From NCBI GenBank assembly GCA_951406725.2, contig OX597825.1, forward strand, positions 42,780,001 through 42,844,000: DNA of 64,000 nucleotides, read 5' to 3'. The DNA comes from Octopus vulgaris. Lineage: Eukaryota. Shown here in pieces: positions 4,570 to 52,670 of the stretch. The translations under genes and the position numbers were made by a program. The notes beneath the pieces are model-generated. The model ran no database searches and was not told the origin of the DNA. It saw only the letters and a program-made list of their open reading frames with translations. Within the stretch, counting starts at the first letter, position 1. The number at the start of each line of letters is the position of its first letter.

Positions 4570-5010
4570 AGTAGAATCGTTTATATTTTTGTTTTGCAAG
4601 ATTTTTGATGTGAAATCGTGTGTTGAAACAGATATTGTTGTATTTAGGAATGGTCATTTTGCCAGTTTAGCCAATAAAAACACACGCACTATATATTTGG
4701 TGTTACTTTGCTTCAGCGTTATTTATTTTTTACATTACTCTTAATTTTATTTCAACCTGAGTTCTTTCGTCACACTCCTGTGACCTCATCAGTGGTCCTT
4801 TGCTTTCTTCTTTCTTATTTGTGTGTCTCTCCTTACTAACGGTCAGCCATTTTGTATTTTGTATTTTTATTGTGTGTCTTCATTTGCGTATGCGTATATC
4901 TCTACGTGTGTCTATGTTTAGTTAGTGTGTGTAATATTTGTATCTCCTGTTTATATACGTTCGTGTAGTTTGTTTTTGTTTATTTTTATTTTGTTCATGT
5001 TTACACCTAC
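4570..5010 (-). mobile_element. PLE pseudo-LTR with hammerhead motif and ORF start (MTIPKYNNICFNTRFHIKNLAKQ)
   Basis: Lies directly 3' of the PLE RT/EN remnant on the same strand. Contains the HHR at 4755-4797 and an ATG at 4657. Homologous to 31490-31720. Confidence 0.7.
4755..4797 (-). ncRNA. Minimal type I hammerhead ribozyme motif (canonical C3-G8 core)
   Basis: Minus strand reads gacca CUGAUGA g gucaca-ggag-ugugac GAAA gaac UC agguu. Core boxes are intact and stem II is 6 bp; the first pair of stem I is mismatched. Confidence 0.75.
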
Positions 5011-5148
5011 TTATTATTATTATTATTATTATTATTATTATTATTATTATTATTATTATTATTATTATTATTATTATTATCATTATTATTATGTATGTAT
5101 GTATGTATGTATAATAATAATAATATTAATAATAATAATAATAATAAA
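5011..5148. repeat. (TTA)n - (TATG)n - (ATA)n microsatellite
   Basis: Directly visible. Confidence 0.95.
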
Positions 5149-5339
5149 AGAGAAAAAAAAGAAGAATCTTAAACAAGAAAATAATTTTTGCATATAACAT
5201 TGGAAGGTTTTCCTTAAGAAATTGTCGAAATATATACAATAACTTTGCAATGCAAAATAAATCATGTACAATAAGAAACAAATCCAACAATGTGATTAAA
5301 AACTAGTCCAAGAATTAAAAATATACACTATCCATATAG

Positions 5340-6705
5340 TATATTGCTAGCCGACATTTTAAATTTAGCTGTGTGCCTGCAGGAATTCAAGAGTTCGCTT
5401 CTTTGATTTAAAGAGTTATTGTCCTGGAATAAAATGAATTATTTTTCCAGCAGGCATAAATCACATTTGATGGGTCTTTTATGTGCACTGTGCCTGTAAG
5501 GTGTAAAATACTCCATGTCACATTGGAAGGTCGGGCTTCTTTTACTTTTAATTCCAAAACATATTTTGCCACACTGGTCTTCGTCCTATTTTCGGGCTAT
5601 CTGAAGGAATTTTTATGCGAATAAAATAGGGTTTTGAAAGAATTTTCAGAAGTCCCTGTATAAGTTCTACATTCGCGGGAGCCTTCTATCTGCACCTTGG
5701 CTCTACACACGATTCCTTTCTCCAGACATTTTCCTTCCAACGGACAGGAAGACCCATCTTTGCCATTACAATTTTTAAGAAGAGAATCGGCACTATGATT
5801 GTTAGCAATTATTCTACTGTTGTGTTGGTTAATAAAAGAGGCGAAGTTTTTGCAGCAAGATTAGCTGATCTGCAGCGTTCTTCTATTAAATATTCTATAA
5901 AACTTATGGTCAGGTTGAAAATGTCTAGAGAGTAATTTCAAGAATTCCCTAACTATATTTGTTTTTACGGCCATATTGAAAGCTTGGTTAAAGCACAAAA
6001 CTTTCCTAGTCCTAGTTATACGTGTAGCATTACTGCCAACATTAAGTTGGTTATACTGGATCTTCTCAGAGAATCCACTATTCCTTAATGCGTTATTGTA
6101 ATAAGGTGCGGCATTTTGGAATGCTGACTCATCCGAAGAAATTGACGATATTCGTCTACCTACATTACTAAGTTCCTAAGAATAATTGGCAGATGATTGG
6201 ATTCTCTGCTAATATAAGACAGCTTATCATTAGGCTTACGGTAAGGTTTAAATTTACCGACTGTAAATCCAAATTAACATCTAAAAACTCTACACTTTTC
6301 AGGTTAGTATCTATAGTAAAACCGTAATCCCATCCTTTGGAAGGAAGCAATAAGATCCTTCCTAAGCTTATCTAATTCATGGCCGTTTAAATTATGGGTG
6401 ACTATAAGGCCGTCATCCCTATATAATCTGCGTCTATAAACGGGAATTCTAGCTTTAGATTATGTGGAAAATAAGCTCTTATGAGCATACATAACTCAGC
6501 CTCGTCGTATGCCCACATCGTTACATCCCCACTCTTCTTAACCCGGGTAGAATCCTCGTAAAAAAGAAGTGATTTCCTCGCATGAATGATAATATCTATT
6601 TCCTAGTTATCGATCTTGACATACTACTTGGCGAAGTCTAATGATATTGACGGGTAAAAGTCAATATCAAACTGCATAAATTAGCAGTTTTGCTTATGGC
6701 TAATC
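5340..6705 (-). mobile_element. Penelope-like retroelement, decayed RT plus C-terminal GIY-YIG region
   Basis: Minus-strand translation across frameshifts gives FMQFDIDFYPSI, DVTMWAYDEAEL, LYRDDGL (~6407-6427), VEFLDVNLDL, CNGKDGSSCPLEGKCLEKGIV, CDLCLLEK and NSLNQRSELLNSCRH. Confidence 0.88.
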
Positions 6706-50266: not shown

Positions 50267-50480
50267 GATTTCAAATTTTGGCACAAGGCCAACCAGTTCG
50301 GGGTTGAGGGATAAATCGATTACATAAACCCCAGTGCTCAACTGATACGTATTTTATCGATCACGAAAGCATGAAAGATAAAGTTGACGTCGGCGAAATT
50401 TGAACTCAGAACGTAAAGACGGATGAAATGCCGCCAAGCATTACGCCTGGTATGCTAACATTCCTGTCTGATCGCCGCAT
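50267..50480 (-). mobile_element. SINE family B with 13-bp TSD
   Basis: Reverse complement of the family-B head and core. The TSD caactaatatatt is at 50254-50266 and 50481-50493. Confidence 0.9.
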
Positions 50481-52357
50481 CAACTAATATATTAACAAGA
50501 AGTAATTCTGTCAGAACGATCTATTCAAAATTGGTATTAGCTTCGTTCGAATTAATAATTTCTAGCTATCCTAGTCTCGAACTATCTCGATGATTTAAAA
50601 TCTAATTATAGTAACAAAGTAATCACAAATCGTATCACCGAACTGCTTGGTCGAATCCTTTTATAACAGAAATATTTTCTGTAGTTTGCGTGATTCATAT
50701 AAAAGGCACATGTCGAAGCAGCCAGGGCAGCAGGTCGTTTACGGGTGACAAAATGCAGCTGATCGATTTCAATGAAAATTATTAATTTATCGTTAATATA
50801 AATCCTTAAAACTATTCTTTTCTTTTAATGTGTACCTCATCACATATGATGAATATATGTTAATCAGAGCACATGCAACGTTAGGTTGAAAGTTATCATT
50901 ATTAGATGTAAAACAATTCTTGACTTGACATTTGTGCAACTGGTAAGATCTAAAACCGAAATTTTTAAAAAATAATCTAAGATATTAAGACAATAATACT
51001 GAATGAAATCCTTTTCCTTCAGCTCCCTTCATATCATCATTGCTGTTTTGTTTATACAAGACTAACAGTTAATCCAAACACGAGTTTTGAGGTCAAACTA
51101 CAACGTATTTAACGCAAAATATTTCAAAACAAATTATGTAAAAGCAGCAAATGTTTCACACGTTGGCCAATTTACGTGTTGTCAAATATAATCCAGCAGA
51201 TCTTTTCTCTTTCATTCGATCTTAATGTAGAAATGGATAATTTCTCTTACATGCTCGAATATATCTCTCGTCATTAATCCATTCTATTAAAGTGACATTT
51301 GAACTGAAGTGCAAATTCCATGCATGATATATTATATAAACTAAAACATTACTTCATTTCTTGTTGAAACCGATTTCAGTTTTCCATTCGGATTGATGTC
51401 AGGAACGAAACAAATTTCTGACTTAATTGCTTATGCTTCAGCAACCAATATGCCTAGTTGAAACCTTTCCATGATCTAAGAATTTAATCCACGAAGTATT
51501 GTATAATGCTGGAATCTTCAAGAGTAATGGCTTTGATGTTGACCAACAAATCTGATTAAATTCAATCAATTTCTTTAATTACGCTGGCAAATATATTGCA
51601 GTGCTCGGAGGAATATCCTCTCGGTCAGGTATAAAGTTTAATATTGTAATTATATTGATGCAAATCTAAGTGAATGAGGAAAATATGCATAGATTAATAT
51701 TAAAGAACCAATTAGTAAAATAAGTGTAGAGAACAAACTATTAATTCACTATTCCCGAAAATATTCAAGTCTTGGTTTACTACAGGTCCCAATAACATAG
51801 AAGACAAAAGAAGTTAGTTAAAATTTCATTTCGTAGAGCATTCTTTGAATTTCATTGCTCGTTGTAGATGGAAAATAATAATTATCACCCAGCAACGACG
51901 CACCAATGAAGGAACCGCTATGCAAGCGCTCAAAACTCCTGATAATAGGTATTGAATTGTCTCAGATTCACATTATTGTGTTGAAATGTAATCCCAGATA
52001 TACAAAATGACAAAGTGTTCACGGCTGGAATGCCCCTGAACATAGTTTTTCACGATAATCTGAAGTAATTAAATAAATTTTATTTATCATTTTGTCCCAA
52101 TCATTCGAAATATTTTCTTCTGTATTTTTATCAACTAAACCGTACTCATGCGTACACACACAGATACACATACTACACACGCACAGGAACACACACATGA
52201 ATACACACATGAACACACACACATACACATACACACTCACTTGTATTTCCACACATAATCATAAAAAGCACACTTACGTAAACATTTGTCATTAGGACCT
52301 CTCTAATTATATAACACAAACCACGAGTTCATAAACACATCAATATAAATATATATA

Positions 52358-52670
52358 TAGTACGGAGATGTACTTGCATAGCAAGTGACCTGATCTGAGA
52401 TTGTGTGATGAAACAAAAACATTTGCAACGTGGAAGGTGTTCATAAGCCATTTAAAAGCACACAAAGCCGTTAGATTCACTTTAACATTCAAATTTAATT
52501 TGTCAAAATATTTTCGTCGCTTTGAAACCGCGACCTGTTCGCTGACTAAATTTCATGCTGTATCTGAGAGACAGCATGCAATTTTGACAAATTAAATTTG
52601 ATTGTTGAAATGAATCTAACGGTTTTGTGAGTTTTTAAATAGCTTATAGACACCTTCCACGCTGCAATTG
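52358..52670 (-). mobile_element. PLE pseudo-LTR fragment with inverted duplication, variant HHR and ORF start (MAYEHLPRCKCFCFITQSQIRSLAMQV)
   Basis: 52423-52509 is the reverse complement of 52581-52668. ATG at 52451. The peptide aligns with those at 4657 and 31591. Confidence 0.68.
52502..52546 (-). ncRNA. Minimal hammerhead-like motif, G3-C8 core variant
   Basis: Reads guca GCGAACA g gucgc-gguuucaaa-gcgac GAAA auau UU ugac. Confidence 0.55.

Follow-up and report, generated by a model that had tools for sequence, protein, structure and literature searches.

Homologous hammerhead motifs of Penelope-like elements in Octopus vulgaris carry three Watson-Crick states of the catalytic 3-8 pair

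A 64-kb stretch of the Octopus vulgaris genome (contig OX597825.1, positions 42,780,001 to 42,844,000; hereafter the window) carries three minus-strand minimal hammerhead motifs which, judged from their sequences, are homologues residing in the pseudo-long terminal repeats (pLTRs) of diverged subfamilies of Penelope-like elements (PLEs). Positions 3 and 8 of the catalytic core read C3-G8 in the first motif (family F1), U3-A8 in the second (F2) and G3-C8 in the third (F3). We consider it probable that these are type I hammerheads of sister families in which the 3-8 pair was rewritten twice from C-G, to U-A in F2 and to G-C in F3, under selection for a cleavage-competent fold. This reading builds on the homology of the motifs, on the family-wide states of the pair, on compensatory changes in the stems, and on the placement of the motifs between a fixed 5′ boundary and the start of an open reading frame (ORF). 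U3-A8 has already been published and rescue by a G-C pair is known from mutants; what appears to be new here is the natural G3-C8 family in F3.

Positions are numbered over the whole window and core positions follow the hammerhead convention (3-8 pair, A9, cleavage after N17); loci fetched from the genome carry L numbers. The three motifs, whose coordinates are collected in Table 1, share a common plan consisting of A2.1, a 7-nt core, one inserted nucleotide, a stem II of 5-6 bp, GAAA, and a stem III of 4-6 nt. Stem II opens in all three with G10.1-C11.1 followed by U-A (GUCACA/UGUGAC in F1, GUUGC/GCAAC in F2 and GUCGC/GCGAC in F3), and a three-way junction of type I with stems I and II is found in all families; stem I of F3 reaches 7 bp in relatives. 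ATGs at 4657 (F1), 31591 (F2) and 52451 (F3) lie 101, 73 and 54 nt below the respective cleavage sites. Scanning the 64 kb with relaxed criteria gave 11 distinct candidate sites, five of them with a Watson-Crick 3-8 pair, and only three of these five, namely F1, F2 and F3, have G10.1-C11.1 in addition. Two 3-8-paired sites that lack it, 48210 (+) and 51185 (-), were dropped as chance. In an Rfam scan of the window, hammerhead was absent among the 150 matches listed of 159, which were microsatellite-driven miRNA matches only.

Copies were searched for in the 2.8-Gb genome, which is AT- and microsatellite-rich, by exact motif patterns with the core positions left free, and reversed patterns served as controls. 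The totals include both halves of inverted pairs and are biased toward young copies: 4,319 matches for F1, 5,119 for F2 and 6,143 for F3, against 0 in the controls, so the motifs are not chance occurrences. The 3-8 states were counted by eye in the first 100 matches of each family in genome order. F1 read C3-G8 in 97, A3 in 1 and U3 in 2; F2 read U3-A8 in 92, C3·A8 in 4, U3·G8 in 3, C3·U8 in 1 and C3-G8 in none; F3 read G3-C8 in 95, G·G in 1, G·U in 2, U·C in 1 and C·C in 1, with U4 in all 100. G3-C8 was also read in F3 copies chosen solely by the sequence below the cleavage site, and it persists in both old and young F3 backgrounds. In contigs of four public runs under four organism labels, positions 3 and 8 of F3 showed no alternative letter at 10% or more. 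A Watson-Crick 3-8 pair is thus the family state in F1, F2 and F3, with the exception of a subfamily of F2 (F2b) that carries U·G, and the variants belong to whole families instead of arising by decay in single copies.

At the family level, U4 G5 A6, G12 A13 A14, A15.1-U16.1 and H17 are all present, and the core of F3 is GUGAACA. The window copy of F3 deviates at U4: its C4 (52541) is private damage, since U stands there in 28 of 29 relatives (1 gap). In the window copy of F1 the 3′ arm of stem I is broken by three changes, and this stem pairs in relatives; the inserted U of the window F2 copy is G in 28/29 relatives. An earlier sequence-only reading of the window had placed the three motifs, their cores and the ATGs, all of which were found at those positions. 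It had proposed that the motifs are homologues from diverged PLE subfamilies and that the 3-8 variants belong to these subfamilies. Both proposals held, the first through the elements and the protein tree described below, the second because the families do not all read CUGANGA. Its third core, GCGAACA, had to be corrected to the family core given above.

Full or near-full elements were recovered for all three families. L189 of F1, reached via L019/L028, consists of a hammerhead, an ORF of 1,307 aa with a YVDD reverse transcriptase (RT), a C-x4-C-xx-C linker and a GIY-YIG endonuclease (EN), a second hammerhead, and an inverted copy. The hammerhead occupies both pLTRs in L189 (at 1659 and 6205) and occurs as 5′ and 3′ copies in L212 of F3; in F2, 5′ hammerhead copies precede RT/EN fragments. 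A search with the N-terminus of L189 gave 150 matches, of which 60 diverged ones were fetched; among these, F3 starts lead into RT/EN in L212, L211 and L226, and L236 holds an open frame of 1,025 aa. F3 and F1 are about 54% identical in RT, and the ORF starts of the three families are about 36-49% identical to one another. Pfam returned 0 families for the intact ORFs, and RT and GIY-YIG were assigned from motifs.

Several features are those of EN+ Penelope-like elements: a single ORF with RT and C-terminal GIY-YIG (L189, L236), partial tandem or inverted 5′-truncated copies with a 3′ tail, and a CX2-5CxxC linker with a CCHH endonuclease (C-x4-C-xx-C in F1 and C-x3-C-xx-C in F3), which is common to Neptune and Nematis. 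The marks of the Hydra clade, RWK and DKT, were not seen in the F1 and F3 ORFs, which have DKSG and CCHH instead. According to the available text of Craig (2021, PMC8557442), the likeness to Neptune and Nematis extends to the single ORF, the YVDD RT, the C-terminal GIY-YIG, two cysteines between its motifs, the CX3-4CxxC linker, inverted 5′-truncated copies and TA-repeat flanks, while DKSG in place of DKG and a long Asn/Ser-rich insert in F1 (1,307 aa) set the octopus elements apart. By their motifs, the F1, F2 and F3 elements therefore appear Neptune- or Nematis-like.

The protein tree was built from 33 loci and 12 unnamed outside relatives with IQ-TREE in fast mode and SH-aLRT support, leaving out L200 (no aligned residues) and L230 (48 residues). 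F1, F2 and F3 form one clade against the 12 outside relatives (SH-aLRT 99.9), and F3 is sister to F2 plus F1 with a fourth lineage, F4 (SH-aLRT 89.3). F4 (L217, L218, L240, L243) is an older lineage near F1 with CUGAAG cores and a variable position 9 (A, U, G). C3-G8 is the general state of hammerheads. It is found in 53 of the 56 representatives in Fig. S3 of Cervera and de la Peña (2014, PMC4209133), and with C3-G8 as the ancestral state the topology requires two independent double changes at 3-8.

In 11 aligned natural motifs, 65 of 66 cells pair, against 11-58% in slid controls, and three of the six pairs (3-8 and two pairs of stem II) change on both sides. The 3-8 pair itself is CG in 4, GC in 3, UA in 2, UG in 1 and other in 1. 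Stem I also swaps base pairs between families, and every double change in these two stems is compensatory. Stem III is palindromic in F2 (AAUU) and F3 (AAUAUU) and is an imperfect AGAACU in F1. U4, G5, A6, G12, A13, A14, A15.1 and U16.1 are unchanged across the three deep families, together with G10.1-C11.1.

The octopus motifs resemble the minimal PLE hammerheads described by Cervera and de la Peña (2014, PMC4209133), which have low activity as dimers, in being type I and in pLTRs, in the lengths of stem I (3-7 bp) and stem II (5-6 bp), in one nucleotide inserted after A9, in G10.1-C11.1 and in a tiny palindromic stem III. That work lists U3-A8 families in Cercyon elements of Schistosoma mansoni (about 1,300 matches) and one U3·G8 representative, from Saccoglossus (Fig. 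S3). Unlike in that collection, the inserted nucleotide here is G rather than H, A9C is dominant in one family, and three 3-8 states occur in one lineage of one genome; G3-C8 is absent from its available text and from its 56 Fig. S3 representatives. The published descriptor requires cuganga (seq=^cuganga) and fails on F2 and F3, as the sequence-only reading had predicted for such searches, and F1 and F3 have 4 nt where its gaaannuh permits 2. Natural U3-A8 was first shown as 3-8 covariation from C3-G8 by Perreault et al. (2011, PMC3088659), whose available text names U3-A8 alone, to which F3 would add G3-C8 in about 6,000 exact matches.

G3-C8 itself is known from engineering. In the available texts, the 3-8 pair is part of the catalytic conformation (Peng, 2021, PMC8495972; Roberts, 2023, PMC9901934), G8C costs 10^5-fold in activity and is partially rescued (Peng, 2021), a C3G/G8C swap is the sole core rescue in a pairwise mutant scan (Roberts, 2023), and G3-C8 is mentioned solely as an engineered variant (Kalweit and Hammann, 2013, PMC3884650). 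The PLE hammerhead of PAc, a Poseidon element of Anolis, depends on the protein of its element and is partly rescued by an engineered C3G/G8C swap (Frangieh, 2024, PMC11167929). The octopus elements are like PAc in a hammerhead at the junction of pLTR and ORF, in RT initiation inside the ORF start, in the tail signature and in insertion from uncut RNA. They differ in that the G3-C8 of PAc is a laboratory mutant and its ORF begins within stem II, whereas here G3-C8 is natural and 54-101 nt separate the cleavage site from the ATG below it. Further context on PLE hammerheads is found in the available parts of PMC6765202, PMC7761336 and a preprint (10.64898/2026.07.22.740005). No natural G3-C8 family turned up in the literature search, which covered neither the figures of papers nor the likeliest prior report, by Lünse and colleagues in 2017. 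Going by its title and a passage in a review, that report is said to deal with PLE-associated hammerhead variants with a reduced stem III and with cleavage as dimers. The novelty that the sequence-only reading had seen in the variant pairs therefore shrinks to G3-C8, U3-A8 being published for PLE minimal hammerheads too.

Several observations weigh against strict selection for cleavage. First, with regard to the covariation, the count of double-changed pairs was reached in 339 of 500 shuffles, a control that ignores the relatedness of the rows, so the count is consistent with covariation and does not prove it. Only two independent double changes at 3-8 are at hand, and both would be Watson-Crick by chance in about 1 of 16 cases by a rough estimate. 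As for the fold, stem I of F2 has only 3 bp, the predicted gain from dimer formation in F2 and F3 is only 1.8-3 kcal/mol, and the inserted nucleotide departs from the published consensus H.

Second, altered cores have spread. In the first 100 matches of F1, position 9 reads C 87 times, U 3 times and A 10 times; the invariant A9 is kept in F2, F3 and the window's own F1 subfamily, which is a minority within F1. C9 stands in nearly all ORF-linked F1 copies fetched (most of L161-L196), including the intact L189. About a dozen more frames of 1,310 aa are 98-99% identical to L189 at the N-terminus. The A9C subfamily is the youngest and most numerous of F1 and includes intact ORFs of about 1,310 aa. 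The older subfamily F2b (148 matches) reads, in its first 100, U3·G8 in 49, U3-A8 in 43 and C3-G8 in 4. Among its 30 fetched loci the G8 copies share diagnostic sites and form a sister group of the main F2 (U3-A8), and 12 of the 13 U3-A8 matches carry markers of the main F2. The U3·G8 of F2b fits a stepping stone from C-G through U·G to U-A, as a stepwise path predicts. Two basal single copies read U3-A8, possibly by CpG decay, so the order of the steps is tentative. The C3-G8 class was not enriched in F2b (4/53 among G8 versus 2/45 among A8 matches, C3 or U3; p 0.68). In F3, 338 matches lack C8, and the first 100 of these read G3·G8 in 41, G3·U8 in 38, G3·A8 in 14, others in 7 and C3-G8 in none. 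G8 is about sevenfold above the background of C>G changes (18 of 200, or 9%, at other non-CpG C/G sites) and is found on every haplotype at equal divergence. An origin of the G3·G8 copies as one ancestral sub-lineage was unsupported, 25 G·G and 20 G-C copies sharing haplotypes and divergence (p 0.9). F2b was seen at L269-L298, L210 and L246, and the G3·G8 finding in F3 draws on L257-L268 and L299-L318.

Third, the ends of copies point to uncut templates. The 5′ ends of 29 F3 copies, obtained with an unbiased query, cluster 44-65 nt above the cleavage site. The whole ribozyme is retained in 21 of the 29, so the template RNA of those copies was uncut, and the 5′ end coincides with the cleavage site in just one of the 29. 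A role of this site in setting 5′ ends or inversion junctions, suggested by a query that contained the inversion, was rejected on this count. Inverted copies are present in 14/29 F3 loci; in 11 of them the copy stops +83 to +92 from the cleavage site, leaving about 55-60 nt to the end of the tail. The 3′ ends of F3 group at about +85-90 and at +145. Two such end points make up the tail that Frangieh (2024, PMC11167929) traced to two internal RT starts, and the thousands of copies of about 220 nt are thus likely cDNAs of the 5′ end of uncut mRNA. In the available text of the same work, PAc ribozyme mutants had no effect on insertion in vitro and no RNA ends were seen at the site. Of 30 F3 boundary copies, 18 have a non-template G immediately above the boundary (p 1.5e-7), which fits a capped start; F2 shows this G only weakly (5/11) and F1 not at all (0/5). 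The sequence at the F3 boundary (L212 ~370-385; window 52565 equivalent) can be taken for an initiator and also, with its CTAAC branch motif and pyrimidine tract, for a 3′ splice acceptor. A spliced first exon as the source of the extra G found no fitting donor in the untranslated region (UTR) of L212, and splicing may occur from further upstream.

The sequence-only reading had claimed selection for self-cleavage by the variant ribozymes. The claim was overstated: it rests on two independent double changes and is weakened by the loss of A9 in most of F1, the amplified U3·G8, the recurrent G3·G8 and the uncut templates. These facts can be accommodated if cleavage is selected only now and then. 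The F3 transcript would be capped, with an internal promoter placing its start about 20 nt upstream of the ribozyme. Cutting would be slow and would involve a dimer joined by the palindromic stem III and/or help from the element's protein, and it may trim tandem or read-through precursors or strip the cap from the mRNA. A minority of transcripts would be cut, or cutting would come late in the cycle, and uncut RNA would be the template of most insertions, with initiation at internal points 85-145 nt below the cleavage site. Selection would then be weak and intermittent: the eight core positions and the 3-8 pair would be kept while sources with a wobble, a mismatch or A9C still amplify. Single copies and even subfamilies could thus spread with a weakened core (the U3·G8 stepping stone, A9C), and long-lived lineages would regain a Watson-Crick 3-8 pair.

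A bolder form of this reading, which we hold to be possible but doubtful, is that F3 is the first natural genome-wide G3-C8 hammerhead family and cleaves, and that the lineage preserves the crossing of a fitness valley (C-G, U·G, U-A, G·G, G-C, A9C) through amplification from uncut RNA.

Among the alternatives, the fold may be selected as a protein-binding or promoter-proximal RNA structure made of stems I and II rather than for cutting, with the 3-8 states riding along. The stems covary in all families, the most active family tolerates A9C, and insertion proceeds from uncut RNA, as it does without need for cleavage in PAc in vitro (Frangieh, 2024, PMC11167929). It is nevertheless rather unlikely, since both major switches at a pair that belongs to the catalytic conformation (PMC8495972, PMC9901934) ended Watson-Crick, the eight other core positions are fixed in elements with such diverged ORF starts, and the region required by the protein of PAc lies, according to the available text, within the first 172 nt of the ORF (PMC11167929). 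That the hammerhead is a decaying passenger, whose positions 3 and 8 drifted and came out Watson-Crick by chance in two amplified founders, is unlikely. The fixation of A9C in young F1, the amplified U3·G8 and the recurrent G3·G8 speak for it, as do Naiad PLEs, which in the available text spread without canonical hammerheads (Craig, 2021, PMC8557442). Set against these are the eight unchanged core positions with G10.1-C11.1 across three deep families, the uniformly compensatory double changes in stems I and II, and the presence of G3-C8 in old as well as young F3 backgrounds. Decay of single copies from CUGANGA, or chance resemblance, is suggested by the private damage of the window copies (U4C in F3, the broken stem I arm in F1) and can be dismissed for positions 3 and 8, because C3-G8 is absent from the first 100 F2, the first 100 F3 and the first 100 of 338 non-C8 F3 matches, reversed patterns gave 0, and ORF-linked copies bear the same cores.

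With naturally occurring alleles of the catalytic 3-8 pair in one lineage that has intact ORFs, the octopus families allow a direct test of whether and when cleavage is selected. G3-C8 is two transversions away through a state nearly dead in mutant studies, and a natural family of 6,000 copies shows how such a valley can be crossed; should F3 cleave, retroelement amplification from uncut RNA would let catalytic RNAs pass inactive intermediates. Together with the intermediates that were captured and the sweep of A9C, the natural G3-C8 family forms a compact test bed for the need of PLE hammerheads to cut. Searches based on cuganga miss more than 11,000 exact-match motifs in the O. vulgaris genome, and claims that PLE clades have no hammerhead need rechecking with positions 3 and 8 left free.

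Table 1. Hammerhead motifs and element fragments in the window
Feature	Positions	Strand	Details
F1 minimal type I hammerhead	4753..4798	-	C3 4792, G8 4787, A9 4786, inserted G 4785; cleavage site 4759/4758
F2 minimal hammerhead	31662..31698	-	U3 31695, A8 31690; stem III AAUU palindrome; 3-bp stem I; cleavage site 31665/31664
F3 minimal hammerhead	52499..52549	-	G3 52542, C8 52537; stem III AAUAUU palindrome; cleavage site 52506/52505
F1 PLE fragment (3′ UTR/pLTR, hammerhead, first ~24 codons)	4578..5167	-	80-91% identical in pieces to intact L189
F1 ORF start	4586..4657	-	same register as and identical to N-terminus of L189 1,307-aa RT + GIY-YIG ORF
F2 PLE fragment (UTR/pLTR, hammerhead, ORF start)	31502..32104	-	76-87% identical in pieces to L208; 29 relatives aligned
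F2 ORF start	31511..31591	-	runs on into RT/EN-coding sequence in L208, L209, L213, L216
Inverted partial copy of F2 UTR	32134..32262	+	PLE-type head-to-head junction
F3 short copy (hammerhead, first ~30 codons, TA-repeat flank)	52361..52569	-	86% identical to 5′ pLTR of ORF-bearing L212
F3 ORF start	52361..52451	-	runs on into RT + GIY-YIG in L212/L211
Inverted, tail-less partial copy of F3 pLTR	52581..52671	+
Broken 3′ half of Hydra-like PLE ORF	5317..6643	-	78.5% to L151

The F1 fragment sits within the 3′ UTR of a Hydra-like PLE to which it is unrelated, and this UTR resumes below ~4575. The ORF at 5317-6643 was considered as F1's own and rejected, as it belongs to this Hydra-like element; its intact relatives have ORFs of 727 aa with RWK and DKT motifs and a hammerhead of their own, which reads CUGAUGA. 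That family (5317-6643 (-), L151-L158) is very young, and many of its 727-aa ORFs are intact; in the available text of Craig (2021, PMC8557442), few Hydra families were found in molluscs. At 4952-6172, L195 (-) has a 406-aa open frame of a further PLE-type endonuclease region that was inserted next to an F1 element. The flanks on both sides of the window F2 copy (31200-32357) are common to L063, L066-L068, L073, L080, L083 and L088, so that this copy was amplified inside a larger repeat and such copies are not independent insertions. The 5′ end of the window F3 copy lies at the common family boundary near 52565.

Two further stretches of the window touch on pLTR hammerheads: 39870-40019 (+) is a decayed copy of another such family, 73% identical to the CUGACGA motif of L153 and damaged in the core and at G12, and 38925-38990 (+) is a decayed CUGAUGA-containing stretch resembling the Hydra-like pLTR hammerhead. 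The fragments at 61943-63451 (-) and 9826-10449 (-) read like ORFs of what we take to be non-LTR (RTE-type) reverse transcriptases, and the GC-richer region at 56900-57900 has translations that resemble a putative Tc1/mariner transposase remnant.

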